From a virus (Duplodnaviria > Heunggongvirae > Uroviricota > Caudoviricetes), in the IMG/VR virus record IMGVR_UViG_2718217795_000002, positions 1-41,292 of that record: a DNA stretch of 41,292 nucleotides; one strand, written 5' to 3'. The stretch's first letter is position 1; each line of letters starts with the position of its first letter. Position numbers and translations under genes: made by a program. Under the pieces are notes generated by a model. The model was given only the letters and a program-made list of their open reading frames with translations. It was not told the DNA's origin and did no database searches. Below, piece by piece: positions 1 through 40,224 of this stretch.

Positions 1-1248
1 ATGGCACTGAATATTCCATTCAGAAATGCGTACTATCGTTTTGCATCCAGTTACTCATTTCTCTTTTTTATTTCCTGGTCGCTGTGGTGGTCGTTATACG
101 CTATTTGGCTGAAAGGACATCTAGGATTAACAGGGACGGAATTAGGTACACTTTATTCGGTCAACCAGTTTACCAGCATTCTATTTATGATGTTCTACGG
201 CATCGTTCAGGATAAACTCGGTCTGAAGAAACCGCTCATCTGGTGTATGAGTTTCATTCTGGTCTTGACCGGACCGTTTATGATTTACGTTTATGAACCG
301 TTACTGCAAAGCAATTTTTCTGTAGGTCTAATTCTGGGGGCGCTCTTTTTTGGCCTGGGGTATCTGGCGGGATGCGGTTTGCTTGACAGCTTCACCGAAA
401 AAATGGCGCGAAATTTTCATTTCGAATATGGAACAGCGCGCGCCTGGGGATCTTTTGGCTATGCTATTGGCGCGTTCTTTGCCGGTATATTTTTTAGTAT
501 CAGTCCCCATATCAACTTCTGGTTGGTCTCGCTATTTGGCGCTGTATTTATGATGATCAACATGCGTTTTAAAGATAAGGATCACCAGTGCATAGCGGCG
601 GATGCGGGAGGGGTAAAAAAAGAGGATTTTATCGCAGTTTTCAAGGATCGAAACTTCTGGGTTTTTGTCATATTTATTGTGGGGACGTGGTCTTTCTATA
701 ACATTTTTGATCAACAACTCTTTCCTGTCTTTTATGCAGGTTTATTCGAATCACACGATGTAGGAACGCGCCTGTATGGTTATCTCAACTCATTCCAGGT
801 GGTACTCGAAGCGCTGTGCATGGCGATTATTCCTTTCTTTGTGAATCGGGTAGGGCCAAAAAATGCATTACTTATCGGTGTTGTGATTATGGCGTTGCGT
901 ATCCTTTCCTGCGCGTTGTTCGTTAACCCCTGGATTATTTCATTAGTGAAGCTGTTACATGCCATTGAGGTTCCACTTTGTGTCATATCCGTCTTCAAAT
1001 ACAGCGTGGCAAACTTTGATAAGCGCCTGTCGTCGACGATCTTTCTGATTGGTTTTCAAATTGCCAGTTCGCTTGGGATTGTGCTGCTTTCAACGCCGAC
1101 TGGGATACTCTTTGACCACGCAGGCTACCAGACAGTTTTCTTCGCAATTTCGGGTATTGTCTGCCTGATGTTGCTATTTGGCATTTTCTTCCTGAGTAAA
1201 AAACGCGAGCAAATAGTTATGGAAACGCCTATACCTTCAGCAATATAG
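1..1248 (+). CDS. cscB: Sucrose:H+ symporter, MFS/LacY family (CscB-like), 415 aa
   Basis: Full-length ORF; multi-TM hydrophobic profile; N-terminus MALNIPFRNAYYRFASSYSFLFF matches my recollection of E. coli CscB; csc locus is known to lie next to argW/dsd. Confidence 0.8.
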   Translation: MALNIPFRNAYYRFASSYSFLFFISWSLWWSLYAIWLKGHLGLTGTELGTLYSVNQFTSILFMMFYGIVQDKLGLKKPLIWCMSFILVLTGPFMIYVYEPLLQSNFSVGLILGALFFGLGYLAGCGLLDSFTEKMARNFHFEYGTARAWGSFGYAIGAFFAGIFFSISPHINFWLVSLFGAVFMMINMRFKDKDHQCIAADAGGVKKEDFIAVFKDRNFWVFVIFIVGTWSFYNIFDQQLFPVFYAGLFESHDVGTRLYGYLNSFQVVLEALCMAIIPFFVNRVGPKNALLIGVVIMALRILSCALFVNPWIISLVKLLHAIEVPLCVISVFKYSVANFDKRLSSTIFLIGFQIASSLGIVLLSTPTGILFDHAGYQTVFFAISGIVCLMLLFGIFFLSKKREQIVMETPIPSAI

Positions 1249-1327
1249 ACGTAAACTTTTTCCGGTTGTTGTCGATATCTCCATATCCCTCAACCGGAAA
1301 ATAATAATACAAAAATGCTTAGCCCAA

Positions 1328-1564
1328 CTAATAATCACCTAATCCAAACGCCTCATTCATGTTCTGGTACAGTCGCTCAAATGTACTCCGGATACGCGGT
1401 TCGCTGATTTCCAGGACATTGTCGTCATTCAGCGACCTGTCCCGAGTATCACGGGCCTGCGAATTCATCAAGGAATGCATTGCAGAGTGAAGTATCGAGT
1501 CACGCCATATTTCGCTATCAGGATTCTGTATGATGGTTACATCGCCCGGCCCAGGGCTGTTTAG
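1328..1564 (-). pseudogene. Open reading frame of about 78 codons with no start codon; likely 3' fragment of a truncated chromosomal gene between cscB and the prophage junction
   Basis: Minus-strand frame open from 1564 to stop at 1328-1330 (ends ...ERLYQNMNEAFGLGDY*), no in-frame start of adequate length. Confidence 0.3.
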
Positions 1565-1689
1565 TCATCAGCGCTTTCTGACAGTGCTGAGATTTCAACC
1601 TGTTGCAGTAAAAATGAGTAGATATAGGGCAAGTGTGCTGCCAAACCCATCTTTTACGGGGTGAAGGTAGATATTGTTAGAAGGGTATC

Positions 1690-1704
1690 TGGTGTCCCCT
1701 GCAG
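1690..1704. repeat. attR core: 15-bp copy (tggtgtcccctgcag) of the argW 3' end
   Basis: Exact 15-bp match to 40210-40224; flanking bases differ on both sides. Confidence 0.8.
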
Positions 1705-1777
1705 ACATCTACTTGAAGCGGCAGGGGGTTGATTGGAATGGTGTTTTTTAGATGTGATAAATATTTTACCCGCTATT

Positions 1778-1978
1778 TTACCCATTGGCGCGGCTTAAGA
1801 GCTTATTTTTGAATTCACAATGGTCACGATATAACCATCTTGCTCGACCGTGGATAACTTTGGCTTTTGGCAGGTCGCCGGACTTAATCCGGTCATAGAT
1901 GAAGGTTTTACCAAAGCCAGTATCGGCCATGATGAATTTCAAATCAACCAGTGAATCAGGCTGTAGTTCGTGTTGCAT
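1778..1978 (-). CDS. torI: Excisionase-like / AlpA-family DNA-binding protein TorI, 66 aa
   Basis: 66-aa ORF immediately inside attR; sequence MQHELQPDSLVDLKFIMADTGFGKTF... recalled as E. coli KplE1 TorI. Confidence 0.8.
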   Translation of the reverse strand: MQHELQPDSLVDLKFIMADTGFGKTFIYDRIKSGDLPKAKVIHGRARWLYRDHCEFKNKLLSRANG

Positions 1979-2021
1979 GAGTGCTATCTCCGAATAGGGA
2001 ATCGAACCTGCAAATCAGGCA

Positions 2022-2043
2022 ATAAAAAACCGCATTGATGCGG
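2022..2043 (-). terminator. Rho-independent terminator of the leftward early operon (stem ccgca/tgcgg, T-run on minus strand)
   Basis: Plus strand aaaaaaccgcattgatgcgg; on the minus strand a hairpin followed by TTTTTT, downstream of the ORF ending at 2103. Confidence 0.5.
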
Positions 2044-2102
2044 CGATGTTATGTCTGGATATATTGAGAAATGAACAGGCCTCATCGAGTGTGAGGCTGT
2101 GG

Positions 2103-2474
2103 TTAGTCATTGCGTAACTCGCTAATTCTTTTGTAAGTCTCTGGTGCTTTGTTTCCGTGTATCTTCATTTCTGACTTCAACAGAGCAACGAGGGAATCCC
2201 ATTCGTTGAGGATGCCTTTGAATGCCGGAACGCGCTTTGCAACCTTGTCGAATGAATCTCTGATTTCTGGAATCTGCTCGACAAGCGCAACGCATCGTCG
2301 GAAATCGGCTGCGTCATGTGGAGCGCCGAAGTGATGACCATAGATATTCTTTTTCAGTCCACATGCGATTGAGGCAAGAGTTGCGCTACTGATGCCGACA
2401 TCGCCAGTCGATTGCCATTTCAAAACCTTCATAGCCAAATCTGACATTTCTTGTCTCCAATAAAAAACCGCCAT
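2103..2474 (-). CDS. Hypothetical phage protein, 123 aa
   Basis: ORF in the co-directional minus-strand operon; start overlaps stop of the upstream small ORF (TGATG); alternative start at Met10 with a GGAG SD. Confidence 0.6.
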   Translation of the reverse strand: MAVFYWRQEMSDLAMKVLKWQSTGDVGISSATLASIACGLKKNIYGHHFGAPHDAADFRRCVALVEQIPEIRDSFDKVAKRVPAFKGILNEWDSLVALLKSEMKIHGNKAPETYKRISELRND

Positions 2475-2641
2475 CAGGCGGCATGGTGTTCTTTCAGTTC
2501 TTCAATTCGAATATTGGTTACGTCTGCATGCGCTATCTGCGCCCATATCATCCAGTGGTCATAGCAGTCGTTGATGTTCTCTGCTTCGATAACTCTGTTG
2601 AATGGCTCTCCATTCCATTCACCTGTCACCCGGAAGTGCAT
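2474..2641 (-). CDS. Small hypothetical protein, 55 aa (below ORF-track cutoff)
   Basis: ATG at 2641 preceded by GGAG with 7-nt spacer; stop overlaps next start; fills the gap between flanking genes. Confidence 0.3.
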   Translation of the reverse strand: MHFRVTGEWNGEPFNRVIEAENINDCYDHWMIWAQIAHADVTNIRIEELKEHHAA

Positions 2642-2713
2642 TTATCATCTCCATAAAACAAAACTCGCCGTAGCGAGTTCAGATAAAAGAAATCCCCGCG
2701 AATGCGAGGATTG

Positions 2714-2998
2714 TTATTCAGTGCCGATATTCACCTTTATCGCGAACACCTTTACCGGTTTATCGCCGAAGTGGGGATGTGTGATTGTCTTGATTTCATA
2801 TCCGTCATACGGAATATCAATTCTGCGGCTGGAATCGTCGCGCTTCGGATATCCCTTTGTGATAATCAGACGGTCATACTTTCGGAACATAATTCGCTTA
2901 TTCCAATAGTCATTACACAGGCGATACTCTTCCGTTTTCTCTCCGCGAATCATGGCATCGAAGTATTCACCTTTAACGGCAAGTTGCAGGTTAGCCAC
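2714..2998 (-). CDS. Hypothetical protein, possibly ASCH/PUA-like fold, 94 aa
   Basis: ORF in operon; family assignment is from weak recollection only. Confidence 0.6.
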   Translation of the reverse strand: MANLQLAVKGEYFDAMIRGEKTEEYRLCNDYWNKRIMFRKYDRLIITKGYPKRDDSSRRIDIPYDGYEIKTITHPHFGDKPVKVFAIKVNIGTE

Positions 2999-3611
2999 GG
3001 TTAACCTCCTGCGGCGGCTCCGGTAGCGGCATCCAGTGAGTTATTTCATCGGCAAAGATATCTGAGTTAAGTTCCGTCCAACTATTCCAATACCCAGATT
3101 CATCCCACCATTTAACCTCGACATGCTCGCCGTCGGTCACTAACACATCAGCATACCCTTTCGGCATTCGCTCACTACAGCTTATCCAACTATCCGGAGT
3201 TACCGGAGAGTTGCCAGATAGCTCGTTCAACTTGTAAGTTTGGCTTACAGGTTCGGCACCATGAAGCATGGCGGCGCGGCAGGCATTCCAGCCTCTCACC
3301 TCTGCAATAGCGGCAACAGCATCGACCGCGTACATGCTAAGAGGGTTAGGCATTGTTTTTTCTTCAGGTACTACTGGCACTGGAGGGGCGGCATAAACAG
3401 GAATAACGTCCGCTTGCTCTTTATTGCTTTCATCCGTTAAAGCCCAGAATAATTTCCCGGCCGGATGTTTGAAAATATAAGCAACTGGATCTGCTTCCAG
3501 CGATGCCAGAGCAATTTCATAAGCACGGCGCTCAATATTGTCTCGAACGTCCAAGCTGCCTATGCGCTCTTTGATTTCTTTAATCAGTTCTTTGTCGGTA
3601 AAAGTGGTCAT
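2991..3611 (-). CDS. DUF551-domain phage protein, about 206 aa
   Basis: C-terminal WISCSERMPKGY...WMPLPEPP motif typical of DUF551; start moved to ATG at 3611 with AAGGAG SD (track ORF extends to 3641). Confidence 0.7.
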   Translation of the reverse strand: MTTFTDKELIKEIKERIGSLDVRDNIERRAYEIALASLEADPVAYIFKHPAGKLFWALTDESNKEQADVIPVYAAPPVPVVPEEKTMPNPLSMYAVDAVAAIAEVRGWNACRAAMLHGAEPVSQTYKLNELSGNSPVTPDSWISCSERMPKGYADVLVTDGEHVEVKWWDESGYWNSWTELNSDIFADEITHWMPLPEPPQEVNRG

Positions 3612-3612
3612 A

Positions 3613-4320
3613 TCACTCTCCTTTGATGCGAATGCCAGCAAGCCAGTTTCTTATGCCGATATATTCAGCGTTCCTGAAACCGCTTTTTACATATATAAAT
3701 GGCAAGCGAAGATTGTGACCATTGACTGCCAGGTAGTCTTTACAACCCTGTTCGGTGAAACAGCAGGTAACGAATTCATCAATATCTTTCACAGCAACGC
3801 GCCGCCATTTTTCTGGTGGCTCTCGAAAGTTTTCGTGAAGTAGTTCGAGACGACGACTTTGGCGTTTATTGGCTTCATTGCCATCTTCATCAACCCAGAC
3901 AATCCGGTCATAGTCATAATCAGCATCAACAACGATTTCGCGCTTTTGATACACACAAAACATAGGGTCTGACGTTATTCGATTATCCTGTGTTCGAATA
4001 TTTTCACCGATGATGCCAAACGAATCTGGTGCAGAGTTTGTCTGCAACTCTTCGATACGTTCAGCCATAGCAGCACACTCTTCAAAGTTGCTTAATTCTT
4101 TTCGCTCCCATTCGGCGCATTGTTTTTCCAGTTCTGCTATGCGCTTACTCCCATCCGAGATAACGCCCTCGTAATACTCACGCTGCTCGTTGAGTTTTGA
4201 TTCAAGTTCACCGAACTTACGGACAAGATATTCAGCGTTTGTTTCGTTAACCTTTAAATCTCGTGGGATGCATTGACCTTTCAGAAATCCATCCATCTCA
4301 ATTAGTGACATTTGTTTCAT
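3613..4320 (-). CDS. Ea22-like coiled-coil protein, about 235 aa
   Basis: Coiled-coil N-terminal region plus C-terminal domain as in lambdoid Ea22 proteins; track start at 4338 is GTG; ATG at 4320 forms an ATGA overlap with the upstream small ORF. Confidence 0.6.
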
Positions 4321-4481
4321 TTCTTCCCACTCCGCCACATCGCATTCAGATATTTGTTTTGATTTACTGATGGAAAAGAATTTCTCTTAAGCAATTCCTC
4401 TCTCGATGGCATTGGCTTTACGCGTTGGCGAATAATCATTTCTGCCGGAAGAATGCCGGGATTGTATGCAAGTCCTCTCAT
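4317..4481 (-). CDS. Small hypothetical protein, 54 aa (below ORF-track cutoff)
   Basis: ATGA start/stop overlaps with both neighbours (4478-4481 and 4317-4320). Confidence 0.3.
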
Positions 4482-4759
4482 GATTTACTCTCCACGAACT
4501 GGTCAACGGCCATGCTAAGTGACACACCTAAAGTTTCGATATGCTGCTGAATATCCTGTAGCGTCTGCGCCTGAGATAACAGTATTTCACGGTTGCATAA
4601 CTCTTTAACCAGATGCTCAAACTTGCTGTAATAACCGATACGGCTTAGTGTTTCTTTCCCTGCATTCTCGCCTTCTTTGATAATTCCTCTTTCGCTAAGA
4701 ATCAGGTCGTGTTTGGTGCCGGTAATAACGTATTTTCCGAGGTCGATGTTTAGCTTCAT
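4478..4759 (-). CDS. Hypothetical protein, 93 aa
   Basis: ORF in the co-directional operon; no family recognised. Confidence 0.55.
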
Positions 4760-4775
4760 TGTTAATTACTCCATG

Positions 4776-5090
4776 TTAATTTATTCGTATGCCTGCTCTT
4801 TCTTCATCGAGTTTTTTTAGCTTGTATCGCATAGCTCTTACTGAATAAATTGAGCGGCAGGTTGCAATTGCTATTTCTTCTGCGGAGAACTTACCGAAAA
4901 GTGATACTTCGGCTCTTGTCCATCGTCTTCCACGAAGTCGGCTAACAATGTCAGCGCCAATCCTTGTTGCTTTCGCCATTACTGCTTTTTCAGTCCTTTC
5001 CAGTTTTTCAGCGATAACTTCAACTGGCATTGTCGCCGCTACTTCGCGCAAGAAATCGACTTCCCATTTCTCCCATGGAGTCTTTTTCAT
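4776..5090 (-). CDS. Hypothetical protein with two Trp-containing SANT/Myb-like helix repeats (putative DNA-binding), 104 aa
   Basis: Two internal repeats (WEKWEVDFLREVAA... and WTRAEVSLFGKFSAEEIA...) read by eye. Confidence 0.55.
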   Translation of the reverse strand: MKKTPWEKWEVDFLREVAATMPVEVIAEKLERTEKAVMAKATRIGADIVSRLRGRRWTRAEVSLFGKFSAEEIAIATCRSIYSVRAMRYKLKKLDEERAGIRIN

Positions 5091-5101
5091 AGGCGATACC
5101 G

Positions 5102-5590
5102 TTATTTGATAAGAAGTGAAGGTTTCCCAACTTTGAGTTGAGCACCGGGGATATTTATTCCTGCTTTTAGTTGTTGTTTGATTGCCAGTTTGTCGGCTTT
5201 AATTGTCGTTTCGAACTCAACGTATTCAGGAGGAAGGGCGCTTGAGTCGAAGATTTCTACAGTTTCTGACGGTTTGCGGATTGTTACCTGGTGAATACCT
5301 GCTCGAATCTTTTTCTTGCCAACCATTTCAAGCGATGACGCTATATACGCCATAATGCTGTTAATCTTATTTTGAATTACTGCGGCTCGCTCATTTAGTG
5401 ACTTTGCCTCTTCCTTGAGGCGTTCAGCATAACCAGATTCATTTTTAATAATGGCAAGAAGTTGCTCTATTTTATCGGTAAATTCTCCTTCCATGCCTTC
5501 TATTGTGTCAGCAATCATCTCTGGTTCTAAATCTGAATCCATCAATTTTGCGTATTCATTGGCAATTTCATACAGTTTGCTCACTAGCAA
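5102..5590 (-). CDS. Gp157-like coiled-coil protein (recombination-module accessory), 162 aa
   Basis: Directly downstream of recT; family assignment from recollection, moderate. Confidence 0.6.
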   Translation of the reverse strand: MLVSKLYEIANEYAKLMDSDLEPEMIADTIEGMEGEFTDKIEQLLAIIKNESGYAERLKEEAKSLNERAAVIQNKINSIMAYIASSLEMVGKKKIRAGIHQVTIRKPSETVEIFDSSALPPEYVEFETTIKADKLAIKQQLKAGINIPGAQLKVGKPSLLIK

Positions 5591-6470
5591 CCTCCAGTTT
5601 CGCTTTGCATTCTATGTAAATGGCTTGTACGTTCTGCTGCAATTTCATTCCAGATGTCAGGCGATATGCTTCTGCAAAATATCGCTTCAAATCATCCATG
5701 TTTTCTGCCTGAGCCATTTCATCACAAAGAAGTTGTGCTTTATCCATTATTTCCTGCTGGCGTTTCCGTTCATCTTCGCGGATATCTTCCTCTGATTTGT
5801 GCGGCATAACTGGTTCCTGATGCATACCTTCATCTTCGTTAAGCAGGTGAATGGCATTATCCAGTCGCTGGGCTTTAGGCCAGTATTTGCTGGCACGTTT
5901 AACTATTGTTTTACGCGCCATCTCTTCCCAGAATGTTTTCCACGGTCCATTCTTTGCCTTGCTCGTTGCTTCCACAGCTTTAATTTCTGCCAGACTCATT
6001 TCTTCAGTCAGGTAGTCACCATCTGCTGTTTTAACCGTGCAATAACCTCCAACAATAGAGCCTCGCTCACCAAATGCGTTGTATTTGTGGGTTGGTGCTG
6101 AATCAAGGCCATTTGATTCATAGGTGTCGTTTGAGTACACCAGTTTGCATTGCCCCCACTTAATTGATCCTGTCGATTGCGCAAGATGAAGTAATCCCAT
6201 GTAACTGATATCAAGGCACACCATGCCGTCGCGCGGAACCAGATAAGCAAGTTTGCTGGCCGGGTTTAAGGTGATGCCGATCGCCGCAACATTGATGATG
6301 GCGTTCTGTGCGCTGGTTGGATTTGCCAGTGCCGTTTTAGCCAGGTAATCATTTTTCTGGAAATACTGAATTGCAAACTGGCTTTCCTTAGCCCATGTCA
6401 CCGTCTGTTCAGTCAATGCTCCGCAGAATAACTGCTCTTGCTGTTTAACGAATTCAACGATATTGCTCAT
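5568..6470 (-). CDS. recT: RecT-family single-strand annealing recombinase, 300 aa
   Basis: Motifs such as GITLNP...AYLVPR and overall similarity to RecT; sits in the lambda bet position. Confidence 0.85.
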   Translation of the reverse strand: MSNIVEFVKQQEQLFCGALTEQTVTWAKESQFAIQYFQKNDYLAKTALANPTSAQNAIINVAAIGITLNPASKLAYLVPRDGMVCLDISYMGLLHLAQSTGSIKWGQCKLVYSNDTYESNGLDSAPTHKYNAFGERGSIVGGYCTVKTADGDYLTEEMSLAEIKAVEATSKAKNGPWKTFWEEMARKTIVKRASKYWPKAQRLDNAIHLLNEDEGMHQEPVMPHKSEEDIREDERKRQQEIMDKAQLLCDEMAQAENMDDLKRYFAEAYRLTSGMKLQQNVQAIYIECKAKLEVASEQTV

Positions 6471-6778
6471 GCTGCTTCTCCAAAAATGTGTCTGCGTTTG
6501 AATATTGCGAAGGCATATTCAGCCTTAACTCTTTCTGTTATTGCATCCCAGAACCATTCAGCGGCTTTTTCCTGATAGTTACAGTCATCATCTTCCAGCC
6601 AGTCGATAGCGTCCTTAGTGTGTTCATCTGGCTTATATGAGCGAAGCATTTCGCTTATTGGGTCGCAACGTTTGCAGAGGCGATCAACTTCACTGTTGAT
6701 TCGTTCGTAATCTTCATCAGTAAAACTTGCGATTATTTGCGATATTTCACGCTTATCATTCAGAGTCAGAATCATCAT
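6467..6778 (-). CDS. Hypothetical protein, 103 aa
   Basis: ORF whose stop overlaps the recT start; in the lambda gam position but no Gam similarity recognised. Confidence 0.55.
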   Translation of the reverse strand: MMILTLNDKREISQIIASFTDEDYERINSEVDRLCKRCDPISEMLRSYKPDEHTKDAIDWLEDDDCNYQEKAAEWFWDAITERVKAEYAFAIFKRRHIFGEAA

Positions 6779-6859
6779 CTTTCTCCTGTTCTTTGTGCTG
6801 ATTGAGCATTTTGTTCATCTGACGAATGAATTCTTCGTCTGACCAGTTATCTGTAAAAC

Positions 6860-7012
6860 TCATTTCCTGCGATACCACGGAATGTTGATCGCTGATTTCA
6901 TCGCTTTATTTGCTTCAAGCCACATTTTGGAATCACCAATAAATCTGGCTATTACTGCTTTGTTTTGTGCTGCACGAAGCATCTGGTGATTGATGGCTAT
7001 TTCATTGCGCAT
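6860..7012 (-). CDS. kil: Kil-like host cell-division inhibitor, 50 aa (below ORF-track cutoff)
   Basis: GGAGG SD 4 nt upstream of ATG; segment IARFIGDSKMWLEANKA resembles recalled lambda Kil (IATFIGDEKMFREA); located between cIII-like ORF and the recombination genes as in lambda. Confidence 0.4.
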   Translation of the reverse strand: MRNEIAINHQMLRAAQNKAVIARFIGDSKMWLEANKAMKSAINIPWYRRK

Positions 7013-7131
7013 AACGCCTCCAGTTGTTTCTTTGCTGCTCTGATTAATTGTTTAACTCGGCGTGATAATTCAGATTCGTGCGGGTAGAAAGCGGACATGA
7101 CGCCGCTACCCGCGAGCTGAAAGTGCATCAT
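6997..7131 (-). CDS. cIII: cIII-like FtsH inhibitor, 44 aa (below ORF-track cutoff)
   Basis: GGAG SD; pattern ..AG..V......ES.L..R...L.. resembles recalled lambda CIII; position leftward of N as in lambda. Confidence 0.4.
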   Translation of the reverse strand: MMHFQLAGSGVMSAFYPHESELSRRVKQLIRAAKKQLEALCAMK

Positions 7132-7214
7132 GGGTAACTCCTTATATTTGATTGCATAACGAAAACGCCTCGAGTGAAGCGTTATTGGTATGCGGTAAAG
7201 CCGCGCTCAGGCGG

Positions 7215-7463
7215 CTACTCTATTTCTTCTTCGAATGATTTTATTAGTCGGTCAATAACATCATCCGTTTCAATATCATTTCCGTCTGATTGCTTTAATA
7301 CATCTATTGATTCTGCAGCGGTGAATTCCATCGCTGTGAGAAACTCGACAATTGCACACTCAACGACATATCGTTCTTCATCTGTACGACATGAGATAAA
7401 AGAGCATTTAATTGCTGTTATTACTTTTTGTTTAAGCTCTGCAGGGTAATCAGTTTTTATCAT
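7215..7463 (-). CDS. Hypothetical acidic protein, 82 aa
   Basis: ORF immediately downstream of a terminator hairpin; occupies the lambda ea10 position. Confidence 0.55.
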   Translation of the reverse strand: MIKTDYPAELKQKVITAIKCSFISCRTDEERYVVECAIVEFLTAMEFTAAESIDVLKQSDGNDIETDDVIDRLIKSFEEEIE

Positions 7464-7476
7464 CGTTTACTCCGTC

Positions 7477-7505
7477 AAAAAAATTGCCCTCACATTAGAG
7501 GGCAA
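7477..7505 (-). terminator. Rho-independent terminator within the pL operon (8-bp stem ttgccctc/gagggcaa plus T7 run on minus strand)
   Basis: Perfect 8-bp inverted repeat with 6-nt loop followed by TTTTTTT on the transcribed strand. Confidence 0.65.
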
Positions 7506-7660
7506 AGAAGATTTCCAATAATCAGAACAAGTCGGCTCCTGTTTAGTTACGAGCGACATTGCTCCGTGTATTCACTCGTTGGAATGAATACACAGTGCTG
7601 TGTTTATTCTGTTATTTATGCCAAAAATAAAGGCCACTATCAGGCAGCTTTGTTGTTCTA

Positions 7661-7807
7661 TTAACCAAGTTCTCTGGCAATCATTGCCGTCGTTCGTATT
7701 GCCCACACCATTGATTCTTATCAATAGTCGTAGTCATACGGATAGTCCTGGTATTGTTCCATCACATCCTGCGGATGCTCTTCGAACTCTTCAAATTCTT
7801 CTTCCAT
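7661..7807 (-). pseudogene. ral: ral-like (restriction alleviation) reading frame interrupted by tandem in-frame stops (TGA TAA)
   Basis: 28-aa acidic ORF with GAGGTGA SD (7721-7807), then TGA TAA, then the same frame encodes ...MVWAIRTTAMIARELG*, matching the recalled C-terminus of lambda Ral. Confidence 0.4.
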
Positions 7808-7861
7808 ATCTCACCTCAAATAAGTGGTTTGCTGCGAAAGTAAATACGCTTAAGTTACCTG

Positions 7862-7999
7862 TTATTTATCCCACCAAGTTCCGTATCTATCTATCCAGTT
7901 ACACCAATCATCGACACTCCATTTTGTTGTGTCGCATTTTGGCAACTGGCATGAATATCTACCTTCTTTGTAAAGTCGGCGCTTGACTTTCTTGAGCAT
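7862..7999 (-). CDS. Small Cys/Trp-rich hypothetical protein, 45 aa (below ORF-track cutoff)
   Basis: ATG preceded by GAGGTGA SD; just downstream of N stop. Confidence 0.3.
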   Translation of the reverse strand: MLKKVKRRLYKEGRYSCQLPKCDTTKWSVDDWCNWIDRYGTWWDK

Positions 8000-8007
8000 G
8001 GCTCACC

Positions 8008-8340
8008 TCAATCGTAATAAGCTGGAATTGATTTTCCGCGTTGCTTCTGGCGGCCTGAGCAAGTCACACCTATTTCACTGCGTGGCTTGCTGTACCATGT
8101 GCGCTGATTCTTGCGCTCAATACGCTGCAGGTTGCTTTCAATCTGTTCGTGGTATTCAGCCAGCACCGTAAGGTCTATCGGATTCAGTGCGCTTTCTACT
8201 CGTGAATTCGGTTTGCGATTCAGCGAGAGAATAGGGCGGTTAACTGGTTTTGCGCTTACCCCAACCAACAGGGGATTTGCTGCTTTCCATTGAGCCTGTT
8301 TCTCTGCGCGACGTTCGCGGCGGCGTGTTTGTGCATCCAT
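8008..8340 (-). CDS. N: Antitermination protein N (lambda type), 110 aa
   Basis: N-terminal arginine-rich motif MDAQTRRRERRAEKQAQWKAAN identical to lambda N; track ORF trimmed to the ATG at 8340. Confidence 0.9.
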   Translation of the reverse strand: MDAQTRRRERRAEKQAQWKAANPLLVGVSAKPVNRPILSLNRKPNSRVESALNPIDLTVLAEYHEQIESNLQRIERKNQRTWYSKPRSEIGVTCSGRQKQRGKSIPAYYD

Positions 8341-8450
8341 CTGGATTCTCCTGTCAGTTAGCTTTGAGTAACGCGCCGTGATGCTTATCTCCACGGTTGC
8401 TGTCTTGCAGCTGCATTTCGCGCTACTCAAAGCTTTCTGCTTTGAATGCT

Positions 8451-8481
8451 GCCCTTCTTCAGGGCTTAATTTTTAAGAGCC
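8451..8481 (-). promoter_or_regulatory. nutL site: boxB (8451-8465, reads GCCCTGAAGAAGGGC on minus strand) and boxA-like GCTCTTAAA (8472-8480)
   Basis: Reverse complement matches recalled lambda nutL almost base for base; located between pL region and N. Confidence 0.8.
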
Positions 8482-8522
8482 TCACCTTCATGGTGGTCAG
8501 TGCGTCCTGCTGATGGCTAAAT

Positions 8523-8562
8523 AGTACGATTTGTACTTTATCGAGTCAATACAAAATGTTCT
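8523..8562. promoter_or_regulatory. Putative OL operators / pL region: perfect dyad agtac-N5-gtact (8523-8537) and a degenerate copy (8548-8562)
   Basis: Palindromes read by eye; related half-sites recur in the cI-cro intergenic region. Confidence 0.35.
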
Positions 8563-8612
8563 AAATATAGTTGGTTTTTTATAACGCTTTGTATTTAATG
8601 GGTTTATATTTT

Positions 8613-8642
8613 GGAAAAAGAAAACCCGACACTAAGGTCGGG
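8613..8642 (-). terminator. Putative rho-independent terminator downstream of cI (stem cccgac/gtcggg, T-rich tail on minus strand)
   Basis: 6-bp stem with 6-nt loop; A-rich run 8613-8624 on plus strand equals T-rich tail for the minus-strand transcript. Confidence 0.45.
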
Positions 8643-8674
8643 TTATTGTTGTGTGCTTTAGAGTGGTGAGGTTG

Positions 8675-9328
8675 TTAACTAAATGTCTCTTCAGGCCACT
8701 GGCTGGCGATAACTTTCCCTACAACGGAACAGCTATCATTGCATGGGATCATTGGATATTGCGGGTTTAGTGGTTGTAGGAACACCTGACCGCTATCCCT
8801 GATCAGTTTCTTGAAGGTAAACTCGTCACCACCAAGTCTGGCTATGCAGAAATCACCTGGCTCAACAGCCTGCTCAGGGTCAACGAGAATTAACATCCCG
8901 TCAGGAAAGCTTGGCTTGGATCCTGTTGGTGCGGTCATGGAATTACCTTCAACTTCAAGCCAGAACGCACAATCACTGGCTTTTTTGGTTGTGCTGACCC
9001 ATCTCTCCGCATCACCTTTGGTAAAGGTTCTAAGCTCAGGCGAGAACATCCCGGCCTGAACATGAGAAAAAACAGGGTACTCATATTGTTTTTTAACGGG
9101 GGCAGATGAGTATTCGCCAACAGGTGAAAATGTACCGTCGTGGTTGAATGAGACGTTATCAATACCAAGGTATTTAAACACCACACCAATCTCGTCAAGA
9201 GATGGATGACGAGATCCGCGCAACCAGTGACCAATTCCACCCTGCGTCATACCAAGCTCTTCAGCTAACTTCTCTTGAGTTATGCCGAGCTCTTTCATTC
9301 TGGATCTAGCCAGTTCATACCATTTCAT
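8675..9328 (-). CDS. cI: CI-type repressor, chimeric: non-lambda HTH N-terminal domain fused to a lambda-CI-like C-terminal S24 autocleavage/dimerisation domain
   Basis: C-terminal region from [14 protein letters not shown] to ...[12 protein letters not shown] is near-identical to recalled lambda CI; N-terminal HTH differs; start chosen at ATG 9328 (9 nt after the purine-rich AAGGG, which abuts the ATG at 9334). Confidence 0.9.
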
Positions 9329-9445
9329 TTTCATACCCTTATTATTACGCTCTGTACTAAAACCATCCATGCACAAGATGTATTTTTTGTTTGCATTCTA
9401 AAAGTACATATCGTATTATTGTTTCATGGTTACTATGGAGGGCAT
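9329..9445. promoter_or_regulatory. Divergent cI-cro control region (OR operators, pRM and pR)
   Basis: 117-bp intergenic region between divergent cI and cro with dyad-like elements (9344-9358, 9369-9396, 9403-9417). Confidence 0.5.
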
Positions 9446-9661
9446 ATGAGCAACCTACGAAAATATCGAGAGTCACTGAATATCTCTCAAACAACACTTG
9501 CTAAGGCAGTTGGATGCACACAGGGAGCTATCGGACATTGGGAATCTGGTCGTCGCTTCCCAGACCTTAAAACATGCCGTGCTCTTGTTGAGTGCCTAAA
9601 CAAGTTAGGCGCAAAAGTCAGTCTTGATGACGTGTTCCCGCCGGAACACAAAGCCGCTTAA
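9446..9661 (+). CDS. cro: Cro-like HTH repressor, 71 aa
   Basis: ATG with GGAGG SD; short HTH protein divergent from cI; track ORF 9275-9661 trimmed. Confidence 0.8.
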   Translation: MSNLRKYRESLNISQTTLAKAVGCTQGAIGHWESGRRFPDLKTCRALVECLNKLGAKVSLDDVFPPEHKAA

Positions 9662-25254: not shown

Positions 25255-25425
25255 ATGTTTGTCAAACCTGTTAAAGGGCGGTCAGTGCCTGACCCTGCCC
25301 GCGGCGACCTTTTGCCCGCCGAAGGGCGAAATGTTGACGAGAACAACTACTGGCTGCGCCGTGAAGCAGCGGGTGATATCCGGCGCGTGAATAAAAAGGT
25401 GAACACCGATGACGATAAGCTTTAA
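25255..25425 (+). CDS. Small conserved tail-module protein (DUF2635-like), 56 aa (below ORF-track cutoff)
   Basis: ATG 25255 with GAGGA SD; fills the gap before the sheath gene and overlaps its start; MFVKP...GRSVPDPARGD recalled as conserved in Mu-like tail modules. Confidence 0.5.
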   Translation: MFVKPVKGRSVPDPARGDLLPAEGRNVDENNYWLRREAAGDIRRVNKKVNTDDDKL

Positions 25426-26905
25426 CACCATTCCATCGAATACGCTGGTTCCGCTGTTTTATGCGGAAATGGATAACCAGGCGGCGAATACTGCACAGGA
25501 CAGCGGAGCATCGCTGCTGATTGGTCATGCCAGTAACGGTGCAGAGATTGTTGCCAACAGTCTGGTGTTGATGCCGTCGGCAGACTATGCACGCCAGATT
25601 TGTGGTGCGGGAAGTCAGCTGGCGCGTATGGTCGAGGCTTATCGCCAGACCGACCCGTTTGGTGAGCTGTATGTGATTGCCGTTCCGGAAGCCACAGGCG
25701 CGGCGGCAACGGTTACGCTGACGGTGACCGGGGAAGCAACCGAAAGCGGCGCGGTGAATGTCTATGTGGGACGTACCCGCGTGCAGGCTCCGGTGACCAA
25801 CGGCGATAACGTCACGACGATTGCCAGCAGTATCAAAGATGCCATCAATGCCGTTCCGACTCTGCCGTTTACGGCTTCATCTTCGGCAGGCGTGGTCACA
25901 CTGACCGCGCGTCATAAGGGGCTTTGCGGGAATGAAATTCCTGTCAGCCTCAATTACTACGGCTTTGGTGGGGGCGAAGTGCTGCCAGCGGGCGTACAGA
26001 TTGCCGTGGCGACGGGTACCGCCGGAACGGGTGCTCCGGTTCTCACCGGCGCGGTGGCTGCAATGGCGGATGAGCCGTTTGATTATATCGGCCTGCCGTT
26101 CAACGACACGGCCTCCGTTAACACGCTGGTGACCGAGATGAACGATACCAGCGGTCGCTGGAGCTATGCGCGTCAGCTGTATGGTCATGTGTATACGGCA
26201 AAGATCGGCACGCTGTCAGAACTGGTGACCGCAGGTGACCAGTTTAACCAGCAGCACATTACCCTGGCAGGGTACGAAAAAGAGACCCAGACGCCTGCCG
26301 ACGAGCTGGCGGCAAGCCGTACCGCCCGCGCAGCGGTGTTTATCCGCAACGATCCGGCACGTCCCACGCAGACCGGTGAGCTGGTGGGTATGCTGCCTGC
26401 GCCGAAGGGGAAACGGTTCACGATGACCGAACAACAGACCCTGCTGTCTCATGGCGTGGCAACGGCGTATGTCGAAAGCGGGGTGCTGCGCATTCAGCGT
26501 GATGTCACCACGTACAGGAAAAACGCTTACGGGGTTGCGGATAACAGCTACCTCGACAGCGAGACGCTGCATACCAGTGCCTATGTACTGCGCAAACTGA
26601 AATCCGTCATTACCAGTAAGTACGGGCGTCACAAGCTTGCCAGTGACGGTACCCGCTTTGGTCCCGGTCAGGCGATTGTCACCCCGGCGGTGATCAAAGG
26701 GGAACTGCTGGCAACCTACCGTCAGCTTGAGCGTGCGGGGATCGTGGAAAACTACGAACTGTTTAAGCAGTACCTGGTTGTGGAGCGTGATGCCAGCGAT
26801 CCGAACCGCCTGAACACGCTGTTCCCGCCTGACTATGTTAACCAGTTGCGTGTCTTTGCCGTGGTTAACCAGTTCCGTCTTCAGTATTCAGAGGAGTCCG
26901 CATAA
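25409..26905 (+). CDS. Contractile tail sheath protein (Mu gpL-like), 498 aa
   Basis: Tail sheath family similarity and size. Confidence 0.9.
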   Translation: MTISFNTIPSNTLVPLFYAEMDNQAANTAQDSGASLLIGHASNGAEIVANSLVLMPSADYARQICGAGSQLARMVEAYRQTDPFGELYVIAVPEATGAAATVTLTVTGEATESGAVNVYVGRTRVQAPVTNGDNVTTIASSIKDAINAVPTLPFTASSSAGVVTLTARHKGLCGNEIPVSLNYYGFGGGEVLPAGVQIAVATGTAGTGAPVLTGAVAAMADEPFDYIGLPFNDTASVNTLVTEMNDTSGRWSYARQLYGHVYTAKIGTLSELVTAGDQFNQQHITLAGYEKETQTPADELAASRTARAAVFIRNDPARPTQTGELVGMLPAPKGKRFTMTEQQTLLSHGVATAYVESGVLRIQRDVTTYRKNAYGVADNSYLDSETLHTSAYVLRKLKSVITSKYGRHKLASDGTRFGPGQAIVTPAVIKGELLATYRQLERAGIVENYELFKQYLVVERDASDPNRLNTLFPPDYVNQLRVFAVVNQFRLQYSEESA

Positions 26906-27261
26906 TGGCCCGTATCGGGGGAACCTGTTATTTCAAAATTGACGGTCAGCAGCTATCGCTGACCGGCGGCATTGAGGTGCCCATGAACAGGACGGTCAAT
27001 GATGACATCATCGGCCTGGACGGTTCAGTGGACCGCAAGGAAACTCACCGTGCGCCTTATGTCAAAGGGACCTTCAAGGTGCCGAAGAATTTTCCGGTGA
27101 ACAAAATCACCTCGTCTGATGAGATGACCATCACTGCCGAGCTGGCGAACGGTCAGGTCTATGTACTGTCGTCTGCCTGGCTGCACGGCGAAGCGAACCA
27201 TAATGCCGAAGAAGGCACGGTCGATCTTGAATTCCACGGTGAAGAAGGGGATTACCAGTAA
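26905..27261 (+). CDS. Tail tube protein (Mu gpM-like), 118 aa
   Basis: Position after sheath and family similarity. Confidence 0.85.
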   Translation: MARIGGTCYFKIDGQQLSLTGGIEVPMNRTVNDDIIGLDGSVDRKETHRAPYVKGTFKVPKNFPVNKITSSDEMTITAELANGQVYVLSSAWLHGEANHNAEEGTVDLEFHGEEGDYQ

Positions 27262-27530
27262 TGAAAGAGCTTGAGTTAAAGAAACCGATTACCGCTCATG
27301 GCGAGACACTCTCCGTACTGGAGTTTGATGAGCCCACCGGGAAAGATGTCCGCGAGCTGGGGTATCCCTACCAGATGAATCAGGATGAGTCCGTCAGACT
27401 TCTGGCGCATGTGGTGTCGAAATACATTGTGCGGCTGGCGAAAGTGCCGCAAAGCTCTGTCGACCAGATGTCTCCGGCAGACCTGAATGCAGCGGCGTGG
27501 CTTGTGGCCGGTTTTTTCCTCCAGGCCTGA
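27261..27530 (+). CDS. Tail assembly chaperone (short, zero-frame product), 89 aa
   Basis: Position between tube and tape measure; slippery TTTTTTC near its 3' end. Confidence 0.8.
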   Translation: MKELELKKPITAHGETLSVLEFDEPTGKDVRELGYPYQMNQDESVRLLAHVVSKYIVRLAKVPQSSVDQMSPADLNAAAWLVAGFFLQA

Positions 27531-27679
27531 CGGCTGAATACCTCACTGATCGCTTCTTTGACTGCGCCAGCTACTGGCGCATTAATCCCTTCGAATTGCT
27601 GAATATGCCGATCAGTGAAATTCCCTTGCTGGTCAGTCAGGCAAACAGGATAGAGCAGGAGAAACGCACACATGGCTGA
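27261..27679 (+). CDS. Tail assembly chaperone long form produced by programmed -1 frameshift at T_TTT_TTC (27512-27518), about 139 aa
   Basis: The -1 frame is open from the slip site to 27679 and overlaps the tape-measure start; canonical X_XXY_YYZ heptamer. Confidence 0.55.
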
Positions 27680-29507
27680 ATTTGAGCTTAAGGCGTTGAT
27701 CACCGGTGTCGACAGGCTTTCTCCCGCGCTGTCGAAAATGCAAAAGAAAATCCGGGGATTTAAACGCCAGGCGGAAGAAGCGTCACAGGGTGGGCTGGCG
27801 CTTGGTGGCGGACTGGCTGCGGGTCTGACGCTTTCCCTGAAATCTTATGCCGATCAGGAAAACGCCGCCACCGGGCTGAAAGTCGCCATGATGGATGCGA
27901 ACGGCGAGGTTGGAAAGAGCTTTCAGGACATCAATAAACTGGCTATTGGCCTGGGTAACCAGCTACCCGGTACAACGGCTGATTTCCAGAACATGATGCA
28001 GATGCTGGTGCGTCAGGGGATCCCGGCAGAAAACATTCTTGGTGGTGTGGGTAAAGCGACAGCTTATCTTGCGGTACAACTGAAAAAAACACCGGAAGCG
28101 GCTGCTGAGTTTGCCGCAAAGATGCAGGATGCTACCGGAACGGCCTCAGAAGACATGATGGGGCTGTTCGACACAATTCAGAAGGCGTTTTATCTGGGCG
28201 TGGACGATACCAACATGTTGTCCTTCTTCACTAAAACCAGCTCTGTTCTGAAGATGGTGAACAAGGACGGTCTTCAGGCTGCACAGAGCCTTGCCCCCAT
28301 CAGCGTCATGATGGATCAGATGGGGATGAACGGGGAGTCGGCAGGTAACGCCCTGCGAAAAGTTATCCAGTCCGGATTAAGCGTTAAGAAAATCAGGGAC
28401 GTCAATAAAATCATGGCCCGCCAGAAACTCGGGGTACAGCTCGATTTTACTGACGGCAAAGGGAGTTTTGGCGGTCTTGATAACATGTTCAGGCAACTGG
28501 CAAAGCTGCGAAAACTGACCGACGTTAAACGAACTGGTGTACTTAAGGCAATATTTGGTGATGATGCCGAAACCCTTCAGGTGGTCAATGCACTAATCGA
28601 TAAAGGAAAGGATGGCTACGATCAGATCCAGCAGAAGATGAATAAACAGGCCAGCCTGAATAAACGTGTTCAGGCACAGCTTGGTACGCTGTCCAACCTG
28701 TGGGAGGCAATGACGGGGACCGCAACTAACGGCCTTGCGGCTATTGGCGGCGCATTTTCTGGTGACGCTAAAAATATCACGCAATGGCTGGGGGAGTTAG
28801 GGGAAAAATTCACGAAGTTTGCGGATGAAAATCCCCGGGTTATTCGCGGCGTCGTCGGGCTTGCTGCCGGTCTTGCGATTCTGAAACTGGGATTGATGGG
28901 CGTGGGCAGTGCCATCAGTATTGTCAGCAGGATCATGTCGATGACGCCGATTGGCATGATTGCGACGGCGATAGCCCTGGCTGCGGGATTAATTATCACT
29001 AACTGGGATGTTGTCGGACCTTATTTTAAGAAACTCTGGGAAACCATTGGTCCTTATTTTGAGGCTGGCTGGGAACTCCTTAAGAAAGTTTTTGCCTGGT
29101 CGCCGCTGGGGATGGTGATCAATAACTGGGGGCCGGTTGTAAAGTGGTTTCAGGATATGTGGGATAAGCTGAAGCCAATTATTGAGTGGCTTACCGACAG
29201 TTCCGGTGACACGGTCGATGCCATTAACTCGGCGCAGTGGGGTGCGGGTGCTTATGATGCTTATGGGACGGGAATACCGGCGCGGGGATACACACCTTAT
29301 CCGGCGGTGGATCCGGCTCAGTCAAACAACGCCTCTAATGCCACAGGCCCGAATCCCTTCATGATTAACAAAGCTTCTGCGCCAAAAGTTGATGGTGAGA
29401 TCAAGGTATCTTTTGTGAATTCGCCTCCGGGTATGCGGGTTATGGAAACGCGATCCAGCGGTTTTGATGTCAGCCATGATGTTGGCTATACGCGCTTTGG
29501 CAGGTAA
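27672..29507 (+). CDS. Tail tape measure protein, 611 aa
   Basis: AGGAG SD; long alpha-helical protein with a hydrophobic internal segment; position. Confidence 0.9.
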   Translation: MAEFELKALITGVDRLSPALSKMQKKIRGFKRQAEEASQGGLALGGGLAAGLTLSLKSYADQENAATGLKVAMMDANGEVGKSFQDINKLAIGLGNQLPGTTADFQNMMQMLVRQGIPAENILGGVGKATAYLAVQLKKTPEAAAEFAAKMQDATGTASEDMMGLFDTIQKAFYLGVDDTNMLSFFTKTSSVLKMVNKDGLQAAQSLAPISVMMDQMGMNGESAGNALRKVIQSGLSVKKIRDVNKIMARQKLGVQLDFTDGKGSFGGLDNMFRQLAKLRKLTDVKRTGVLKAIFGDDAETLQVVNALIDKGKDGYDQIQQKMNKQASLNKRVQAQLGTLSNLWEAMTGTATNGLAAIGGAFSGDAKNITQWLGELGEKFTKFADENPRVIRGVVGLAAGLAILKLGLMGVGSAISIVSRIMSMTPIGMIATAIALAAGLIITNWDVVGPYFKKLWETIGPYFEAGWELLKKVFAWSPLGMVINNWGPVVKWFQDMWDKLKPIIEWLTDSSGDTVDAINSAQWGAGAYDAYGTGIPARGYTPYPAVDPAQSNNASNATGPNPFMINKASAPKVDGEIKVSFVNSPPGMRVMETRSSGFDVSHDVGYTRFGR

Positions 29508-29567
29508 TGAAAAATTAATCTGTTAATGAGTCCCACTCCGGTGGGATTTTTTATGTACGGAGTTTAT

Positions 29568-31972: not shown

Positions 31973-32520
31973 TGAGGACGATTGAAGCCATGCAGCGACA
32001 ACTCCTCGGCCTGATTGGGCGGGCAGTGGTGAAAAGCATCAGTGCCGCCACGAAATGTCAGACCGTGGATGTGTCCCTGATTGCCGGTGAACCCAAAGCC
32101 GGGGTTGAACATCTTGAACCCTACGGTTTTACCGCAAGGGCAAACAGCGGTGCGGAAGCGGTGGTGTTGTTTCCGGATGGCGACCGTTCTCATGCGGTGG
32201 TTGTTACGGTGTCGGACCGGCGCTACCGCCTGAAAGGGCTGCAGACGGGTGAGGTGGCTGTCTATGACGATCAGGGGCAGTCTGTGACGCTGACCCGGGA
32301 GGGGATCGTGGTGGACGGTGCAGGTAAAACGATCACGTTTCGCAATGCGCCCAGAGCACGTTTTGAAATGGACCTGGAAGTGACCGGACAGGTGAAAGAC
32401 CTGTGCGACTCCGGCGGTACCACCATGTCAGCGATGCGGCTTGCCTATAACGGGCATCGTCACAGAGAGAACGGTCAGGGCAGTAACACCGACAAACCGG
32501 ATAAAGCGATGGAGGCATGA
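31972..32520 (+). CDS. Baseplate assembly protein V / spike (Mu gp45-like), 182 aa
   Basis: Position and family similarity. Confidence 0.8.
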   Translation: MRTIEAMQRQLLGLIGRAVVKSISAATKCQTVDVSLIAGEPKAGVEHLEPYGFTARANSGAEAVVLFPDGDRSHAVVVTVSDRRYRLKGLQTGEVAVYDDQGQSVTLTREGIVVDGAGKTITFRNAPRARFEMDLEVTGQVKDLCDSGGTTMSAMRLAYNGHRHRENGQGSNTDKPDKAMEA

Positions 32521-34565: not shown

Positions 34566-34568
34566 TCC

Positions 34569-37443: not shown

Positions 37444-37450
37444 ATAGATG

Positions 37451-40209: not shown

Positions 40210-40224
40210 TGGTGTCCCCTGCAG
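40210..40224. repeat. attL core: 15 bp of the argW 3' end duplicated at 1690-1704
   Basis: Exact direct repeat. Confidence 0.8.

Follow-up and report, generated by a model that had tools for sequence, protein, structure and literature searches.

Accessory genes between torI and the RecT-Gp157 module of an argW lambdoid prophage: a known and very common mosaic

We have analyzed eight consecutive open reading frames (ORFs) on the minus strand, at positions 2103-5090 of a 41,292-nucleotide (nt) stretch of Caudoviricetes DNA (IMG/VR record IMGVR_UViG_2718217795_000002; hereafter the window), where they lie in a prophage between the excisionase gene torI and the genes for Gp157 and RecT. The locus is an already known and very common mosaic of genes without known function, not a new system. 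An earlier note on the same DNA had described an uncharacterized accessory cluster and named it the likeliest place for an undescribed function; what it observed holds for the most part, and its expectation is partly supported. We explain the block, with moderate confidence, as the exo-xis or 'ea' accessory segment of the pL operon in a lambdoid prophage at argW, that is, as a mosaic of dispensable modulators. The identity part of this explanation is in our view firm, and the functional part is by analogy only.

The eight genes and their distribution

All eight ORFs were confirmed within 2103-5090 as the consecutive, co-directional series that the earlier note had described, and they are under purifying selection. 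Comparison with HK022, lambda, P22, Shiga toxin (Stx) phage 1717, vB_EcoP-683R2 (683R2) and Gally gave ratios of nonsynonymous to synonymous change (pN/pS) mostly of 0-0.27, and each product matched a PHROG family (E 1e-20 to 1e-57), nearly all of these families being labelled 'unknown function'. Because synonymous changes dominate and each product matches such a family, we regard the eight ORFs as genuine genes.

Several starts and junctions differ from the first description; the new starts rest on ribosome-binding site (RBS) context and on the RefSeq annotation of a 99.6%-identical locus. The ORF first given as 123 amino acids (aa) is more likely 114 aa (2103-2447), with GGAG 8 nt upstream. 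The DUF551 gene re-starts at an ATG and encodes 206 aa (2991-3611), and the Ea22-like gene re-starts to encode 235 aa (3613-4320), its ATG overlapping the stop of the 54-aa gene as ATGA. Translational coupling, proposed for the whole series, applies to the run 93 > 54 > 235 > 206 > 94 aa, whose junctions are ATGA, ATGA, a 1-nt gap and an 8-nt overlap, but not to the remaining junctions: the 104-aa gene stands between an 11-nt gap after the Gp157 stop and a 16-nt gap, and the 94-aa and 55-aa genes are separated by a 72-nt gap that holds two terminator-like hairpins.

In Pfam, matches to DUF551, DUF2737 and DUF5405 were above the cut-off, those to Ead_Ea22 and ASCH were below it, and three products had no family. 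The domain calls DUF551, Ea22-like and ASCH-like of the first description hold, although Ead_Ea22 and ASCH are below threshold, and so does its statement that the ORFs have no clear functional assignment: public sources assign none of them a function. An NCBIfam scan of the products gave noise only. PDB sequence searches with the 114-, 94-, 206-, 235-, 93- and 104-aa proteins found nothing below E=0.1, and an Rfam scan of the region found nothing at gathering thresholds, with a chance Leu-leader match (E=0.28) at the hairpins. Transmembrane segments were found in none of the products (maximum 19-residue Kyte-Doolittle mean ≤1.02), and all eight are predicted to be soluble.

The exact sequences of all eight proteins are already public, on between 1 and at least 1000 contigs each, under the names hypothetical, DUF, ASCH or Ea22-like. 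Five proteins (114, 55, 94, 235 and 54 aa) and residues 1-118 of the 206-aa protein correspond to the products of HK022 genes 32-38 at 92-100% identity, and the 93- and 104-aa proteins are 98-100% identical to products of 683R2 genes. By megablast, part of 2103-5090 occurs in 4206 of 5426 complete E. coli genomes (78%), at a median of two and a maximum of twelve places per genome; among phages, the surrounding 4 kb has matches in 593 records. Four complete E. coli genomes keep seven of the eight genes in collinear order, at 99.5% identity and at the same csc/argW site. As a separate observation, plasmid records hold 629 of the 10,694 megablast places for 2103-5090, possibly as phage-plasmids.

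The whole block occurs together in no single record, and similarity breaks at gene or domain boundaries. We therefore read the block as a mosaic of independently exchangeable cassettes and not as one system, and the proposal of an accessory block beside torI in the early-left (pL) operon is supported. The word 'undescribed' does not stand, the exact sequences being public and counterparts being available in HK022 gp32-38, lambdap35, P22 orf56, the P22 EaA-like proteins and Ea22 V3. Nor does the position correspond to the lambda b-region, to which it had been likened; it corresponds to the lambda exo-xis ('bin') region instead, on which a series of genetic and structural papers has appeared (PMC10789677, PMC7093339, PMC10834534). 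Confident homology to characterized proteins was not found for every ORF.

Cassettes and individual proteins

The most torI-proximal part of the block consists of cassettes bracketed by hairpins. The 55-aa protein (phrog_676, 6e-39) is 98% identical to the product of an unnamed lambda gene at 29118-29285. This gene, two hairpins upstream and one downstream form one conserved block, nearly base for base the same in lambda (29086-29373), HK022, 683R2 and the window (hairpin regions 2642-2713 and 2458-2482), and the hairpin pair at 2661-2712 is base-for-base identical in lambda, HK022 and 683R2. The 114-aa gene, together with a 31-aa excisionase remnant, is bracketed by a 25-nt direct repeat whose two copies are 84% identical and each form a terminator-like hairpin with a T-run. 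Phage 683R2 has a single copy of this repeat and no 114-aa cassette, which suggests that the cassette has been gained or lost through recombination at the hairpins. The hairpins look like joints for cassette exchange.

The 114-aa protein, named 'ORF114 of phage 434' in an Stx-phage record, has a domain with a confident predicted fold model that belongs to a large family. Neither a Pfam model nor a relative of solved structure was found for this domain in Pfam or in PDB sequence and profile searches, and Pfam scans of ten longer proteins that carry it gave no informative partner domain. A profile built from a 7-sequence alignment found relatives encoded in 398 IMG/VR stretches. The best 80 of these loci come mostly from related enterobacterial prophages. 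In 69 of the 80, no more than 4 kb separates the gene from the contig end on its 3' side, and at one distant locus it is followed by a short ORF and then by an excisionase-like gene and an integrase gene. ORF114 is a very large phage family without structural assignment that adjoins xis and int, and it is the only part of the block with some novelty, which is mild. The 31-aa ORF downstream has 79% identity to the P22 Xis N-terminus over 19 aa, 80% to K-12 YpdJ over 15 aa, and a weak match to TIGR01764 'excise'. We read it as the leftover of a P22-type excisionase N-terminus, with torI, just downstream, as the functional excisionase.

The 94-aa protein matches phrog_625 (4e-51), in a family of 669 homologous clusters, and is named 'ASCH domain-containing' or 'RNA-binding protein' in RefSeq and UniRef. 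The Pfam ASCH match (PF04266) covers residues 6-28 only (E=0.063; 14.4 bits against a cut-off of 21.2), and ASCH matches appear in 12 of 30 relatives, the best of them (E 0.013) also below threshold. A profile search of this family against PDB found nothing.

The 206-aa protein joins two parts of different affinity. Residues 1-118 match HK022 gp36 at 99% identity, residues 1-42 match K-12 YfdT at 83%, and DUF551 (PF04448) matches at the C-terminus with 56.8 bits against a cut-off of 22 (E=4e-15; residues 151-211 of the 216-aa reading). The 235-aa protein is 99% identical to HK022 gp37 and has the layout of Ea22 variant V3, namely a short N-terminal segment, a coiled coil and a variable C-terminal domain. 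Its N-terminal 40 aa are 72% identical to K-12 YfdS, the coil matches lambda Ea22 at 92% over 26 residues, and residues 40-235 are 96% identical to gp07 of Stx phage 1717, which Donaldson and colleagues list among the carriers of V3 (PMC10834534). The Pfam Ead_Ea22 match is just under the cut-off (25.6 bits against 27, E=2e-5). The 206-aa and 235-aa proteins were considered as paralogues, and this was rejected on finding no significant BLASTP alignment between them. In E. coli Ecol_545, RefSeq has only a 195-nt pseudogene fragment at 5927-6121 ('DUF551 ... missing C-terminus'), where tblastn shows an intact ORF at 5417-6121 whose product is 99% identical to the 235-aa protein; the pseudogene call is probably an annotation artefact.

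The 54-aa protein is a clear DUF2737 member (PF10930; 107.7 bits against a cut-off of 25, E=2.6e-31), 100% identical to the HK022 gp38 locus and 75% to P22 orf56, and its gene is the commonest piece among phages in the queried stretch 4300-6470. The 93-aa protein is assigned to DUF5405 (PF17399; 25.5 bits against a cut-off of 21.6) and to phrog_154 (2.6e-31). Its exact sequence is on at least 999 contigs, and its gene has a pN/pS of 0.03-0.06. PHROG labels the DUF5405 family 'replication initiation protein'; we did not adopt this label, which has no other support.

The 104-aa protein consists of two helix-turn-helix (HTH) repeats throughout, with the GcrA DNA-binding domain/Myb fold, and 152-aa relatives carry three such repeats. 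Its fold is of the type seen in the N-terminal DNA-binding domain of Caulobacter GcrA (PDB 5yiu) and in Myb/SANT repeats. As GcrA itself the protein was rejected, since it lacks the sigma-70-interacting C-terminal domain and the Pfam GcrA signature, for which there was no match at E≤0.1. In layout and setting it resembles P22 Abc1, a two-repeat HTH protein of ~94 aa that stands beside a recombinase as the 104-aa protein does here. Both match phrog_323 (2.8e-20 for the 104-aa protein and 1.3e-23 for Abc1) at overlapping profile positions (145-269 and 93-190, respectively), and the annotators of phage Gally name the identical gene Abc1-like. The gene travels with those for Gp157 and RecT in 12 phage records, and in prophages identical up to ~4763 its slot is taken by abc2 and other recombination genes. 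Because of this co-travel and this replacement, we assign the 104-aa gene to the Gp157-RecT recombination module as a putative Abc1-like factor; the 'Myb-like' gene had been counted as a member of the accessory cluster, and it sorts with the recombination module instead. The HK022 'Abc1 analogue' gp40 is of SSB type (phrog_44) and unrelated to the 104-aa protein.

Prophage setting and early-left operon

The window begins in cscB, the sucrose permease gene (1-1248), and contains a complete, att-bounded prophage of ~38.5 kb. The right-hand copy of the att core lies inside the 3' end of argW, and the K-12 counterpart of this 15-nt core is the pawZ feature (15 nt). Genes resembling gtrABC, for O-antigen modification, stand at the right prophage end. 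On the minus strand the gene order is RecT > Gp157 > the eight ORFs > torI > att core, all co-directional (Table 1).

Table 1. Positions of the genes, hairpins, repeats and sites discussed in the text
Feature	Position	Strand	Description
att core, left and right copies	1690-1704; 40210-40224		15-nt exact repeat TGGTGTCCCCTGCAG; first copy is the left prophage end
torI excisionase	1778-1978	minus	100% identical to K-12 TorI; left end
31-aa excisionase remnant	2015-2110	minus	ypdJ-like; overlaps the 114-aa gene stop
25-nt direct repeat (family D1), copy 2	2020-2044	minus	terminator-like hairpin (2044-2029); follows the 31-aa remnant ORF
114-aa protein	2103-2447	minus	all-alpha; ORF114 of phage 434/HK022 gp32 family
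25-nt direct repeat (family D1), copy 1	2458-2482	minus	terminator-like hairpin with T-run
Terminator-like hairpin and T-run	2482-2467	minus	spans the 55-aa gene stop; ends ~20 nt before the 114-aa start
55-aa protein	2474-2641	minus	acidic; equals lambda 55-aa gene lambdap35
Tandem intrinsic-terminator-like hairpins	2712-2691; 2680-2661	minus	terminator scan; upstream of the 55-aa cassette
94-aa protein	2714-2998	minus	ASCH-like (PUA-like), small, basic; GTG start; HK022 gp34 family
206-aa protein	2991-3611	minus	EaA-like; YfdT/HK022 gp36-type N-terminal part and C-terminal DUF551
235-aa protein	3613-4320	minus	Ea22 family; YfdS-like N-terminal 40 aa, coiled coil, 'V3' C-terminal domain
54-aa protein	4317-4481	minus	DUF2737; P22 orf56/HK022 gp38 family; very basic, pI 11
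93-aa protein	4478-4759	minus	DUF5405
104-aa protein	4776-5090	minus	tandem three-helix HTH, Abc1-like; GcrA DNA-binding domain/Myb-like repeats
Gp157	5102-5590	minus	Mu Gam-like; Sipho_Gp157 E=7e-37, phrog_253
RecT	5568-6470	minus	by RecT annotation in related phages
N-like ORF	8008-8430	minus	pL-like promoter and lambda-type nutL upstream
nutL	boxB 8465-8451	minus	boxA GCTCTTA and boxB hairpin GCCCTGAAGAAGGGC
pL-like promoter	8549-8521	minus	TTGACT-17-TACTAT; promoter scan
Integrase	38891-40084		right prophage end
tRNA-Arg(CCT), argW	40210-40284		tRNA call

The eight genes lie 3.4-6.4 kb downstream of a lambda-type pL/nutL/N arrangement, and the boxB GCCCTGAAGAAGGGC is the lambda nutL boxB sequence. 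The pL-like promoter, the nutL site and the N-like ORF upstream place the block in what appears to be the promoter-distal part of an early-left operon. A promoter scan found no promoter-like site inside 2103-5090, and over 1200-9500 such sites were not enriched (8 against 15.4 expected from shuffles). Terminator-like sites were enriched over the same interval (19 against 8.0 expected from shuffles), and four terminator-like hairpins lie in or just past the promoter-distal part of the block.

Other features of the window were also seen. With torI at one prophage end and int at the other, attP would stand between xis and int after excision, as described for KplE1. Between cscB and the att core, a 50-aa ORF (1328-1480, minus strand) has a position that is annotated as a short DUF4942 domain protein in a near-identical genome; it is probably a gene fragment outside the prophage. 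Between RecT and N, small early-left ORFs (6467-7463, minus strand) include, going by the 683R2 annotation, a Kil-like gene (6860-7012) and a CIII-like gene (6997-7131), and also genes for 103-aa and 82-aa proteins without assigned function. The late region (25409-35941, plus strand, and 35971-38727, minus strand) resembles a contractile-tail (myovirus-type) module from ORF sizes alone, with one sheath-sized ORF of 498 aa and others of baseplate size. On these sizes, a myovirus-type late module would be combined with a lambda/P22-type early region and gtrABC-like genes.

Proposed function, alternatives and known systems

In lambda and Stx phages the exo-xis region is transcribed from pL, is dispensable, blocks initiation of host replication and shifts the balance between lysis and lysogeny (PMC10789677). 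By analogy, the products of the block may modulate the lysis-lysogeny decision and host DNA replication without being essential. The genes would be off in the lysogen and turned on upon induction or infection, when N-modified RNA polymerase would pass the hairpins; given such read-through, the most distal cassettes (55 aa and 114 aa) would therefore be the most N-dependent. Ea22 is tetrameric, with variable C-terminal domains that include V3 and DUF551, and favors lysogeny (PMC7093339, PMC10834534). The 235-aa Ea22-type protein may accordingly be pictured as a coiled-coil oligomer that serves as a scaffold for an exchangeable C-terminal domain and, as for lambda and Phi24B Ea22, would bias the phage toward lysogeny, and the 206-aa protein would carry DUF551 on an N-terminal part of EaA/YfdT type. 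In K-12, yfdQRS or yfdQRT in excess inhibits DnaA-dependent initiation (PMC4776307), and relatives of the 206-aa type (YfdS, YfdT) may contribute to that inhibition. The 94-aa ASCH-like protein is probably a nucleic-acid binder, and the 104-aa tandem HTH protein would be a DNA-binding accessory factor of the Gp157-RecT module, like P22 Abc1, which assists recombination and is not essential for it (PMC12315714). The remaining four products (54, 55, 93 and 114 aa) are small and probably bind proteins of the host or the phage.

Several points weigh against this functional reading. The roles proposed for the eight proteins are carried over from homologues. The exo-xis phenotypes, dispensability and the effect on the lysis-lysogeny decision among them, come from lambda and Phi24B (PMC10789677, PMC7093339), whose genes orf60a, orf61, orf63, orf73 and ea8.5 are all absent here. 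Ea8.5 and Orf60a/61/63 are among the proteins behind those phenotypes, and the window has only Ea22 and the 55-aa gene in common with the lambda and Phi24B regions. The tetramer and pro-lysogeny results were obtained with lambda and P27/Phi24B Ea22 (PMC7093339, PMC10834534). In the YfdQRST work the DnaA binder is YfdR, absent from the window, and the likeness to YfdS and YfdT is confined to the N-terminal ~40 aa and a weak DUF551 match. ASCH membership of the 94-aa protein is sub-threshold, and direct comparison of the 104-aa protein with Abc1 was weak (hhalign probability 24-31%, no BLASTP alignment). For their part, N-dependent passage of the hairpins and a silent block in the lysogen are what we infer from the arrangement of the operon.

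The earlier note had expected anti-defense, superinfection-exclusion or host-takeover genes here, and the PADLOC, PHROG category, transmembrane and promoter scans gave no signal of such a role. That at least one of the eight proteins inhibits host immunity early in infection (restriction, RecBCD-linked or abortive), making the block a counter-defense island, we nevertheless weigh as unlikely rather than negligible. The region is variable and early, it adjoins recombination and anti-RecBCD genes, with abc2 in the 104-aa slot of related prophages, and a dATP/dGTP pyrophosphohydrolase domain is present in relatives of the 206-aa protein. Moreover, P22 abc1, whose product shares a PHROG family with the 104-aa protein, sensitized several wild E. 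coli strains; in that accessory-gene screen the HTH protein sensitized hosts to phages and caused P4-dependent cell death (bioRxiv 10.1101/2023.04.06.535777, PMC12373910). The phenotype was, however, traced to barrier effects (O-antigen or capsule) without a clear target. Peptides of six block proteins were looked for in the supplements to the accessory-gene screen of Silas et al. 2025 and not found. No product of the block had a PHROG match in the host-takeover or anti-restriction categories. Known inhibitors such as Ral/Lar, Gam, Abc2, Ocr and ArdA did not appear in the PHROG, Pfam and NCBIfam searches, which included no dedicated anti-defense library, and tblastn against the lambda and P22 loci with ral, gam and abc2 gave no match to those genes. 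In the loci compared there was no similarity to Abc2, Gam, Ral or Lar. Strong conservation (pN/pS 0-0.27) and presence in 78% of E. coli genomes regardless of strain are also unlike a fast arms race. Prophage ends do often hold defense or exclusion genes expressed to protect the lysogen, and gtrABC is at the other end of this one. Such a role is very unlikely here because a PADLOC scan of ten proteins gave no match, no product has the membrane segment of SieB/Cor/Imm-type exclusion proteins, and the block has no promoter-like site; it is also oriented with the repressed pL operon, and its distal cassettes are preceded by terminator-like hairpins.

There is only a slim chance, in our estimate, that the whole block extends the recombination module, all eight products assisting Gp157-RecT. 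The 104-aa gene does travel with Gp157-RecT, and relatives of the DUF2737 and DUF5405 genes adjoin different recombination modules (Erf, Rad52, RecT). Against this, the other seven genes adjoin at least four unrelated recombinase types and, in lambda and Stx phages, Exo/Bet, so they are not bound to one recombinase, and a Genome Research 2025 survey handled the recombination module as a separate contiguous cluster. As for the 54- and 55-aa ORFs, we give practically no weight to the idea that they are not genes. They are short, and one of them is annotated in lambda from a GeneMark prediction only. Against this, pN/pS is 0.04 for the 55-aa ORF relative to lambda and 0-0.27 for the 54-aa ORF (0.19 relative to P22, at 74% DNA identity), Pfam and PHROG matches reach E 1e-31 to 1e-39, and both have a plausible RBS or ATGA coupling. 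Because of the substitution pattern, we take spurious ORFs to be excluded.

An exo-xis accessory segment thus remains our preferred explanation. As the outcome of a genome scan it is negative, a textbook mosaic carried by most E. coli genomes, and to flag it as a new system would be a mistake. Our contributions are the corrected starts and junctions, the description of the 55- and 114-aa cassettes as bracketed by hairpins, which is consistent with recombination at the hairpins, the transfer of the 104-aa gene to the RecT-Gp157 module, and the recognition of the ORF114 domain as a very large phage family. The genes are common in prophages of pathogenic and commensal E. coli, including Stx phages, so any function would apply widely, and this wide occurrence is a reason to study the families rather than this locus. 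At that level, it would be reasonable to take up the ORF114 domain family and the Abc1-like tandem HTH protein.

The exo-xis ('bin') region of lambda and Stx phages occupies the same slot between the recombination genes and xis, which in those phages is the distal end of an N-antiterminated pL operon. It has in common with the window an Ea22-family protein (coil 92%, V3 C-terminal domain 96%) and, in lambda, the 55-aa gene with its flanking hairpins (98%). The lambda genes ea8.5, orf60a, orf61, orf63 and orf73 are absent here, and the window has 114-aa, ASCH-like, DUF551, DUF2737 and DUF5405 genes instead; its recombination module is RecT/Gp157, whereas that of lambda is Exo/Bet/Gam. HK022 genes 32-38 (AF069308) include counterparts of six of the eight, in unchanged order and with 92-100% identical amino-acid sequences, with the difference that gp35 and gp36 are two genes where the window has one 206-aa protein, whose DUF551 C-terminus is 45% identical to gp35. 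HK022 then continues with abc2, the Abc1 analogue and erf, whereas the window continues with DUF5405, the 104-aa gene, Gp157 and RecT. The K-12 cryptic prophage CPS-53/KplE1 (yfdQ-yfdR-yfdS-yfdT-ypdJ-torI) has the same argW site, att core, TorI and ypdJ-like remnant. Its YfdS and YfdT resemble the 235- and 206-aa proteins over the N-terminal ~40 aa (72% and 83%, respectively) and differ in their C-terminal parts; YfdQ and YfdR are absent from the window, and K-12 lacks the 114-, 55-, 94-, 54-, 93- and 104-aa genes. P22 EaA has a matching N-terminal part and DUF551, as in the 206-aa protein, which lacks the dATP/dGTP pyrophosphohydrolase domain that P22 EaA carries between these two ends. P22 also has the DUF2737 gene as orf56 (75%), and its abc2 is absent from the window.

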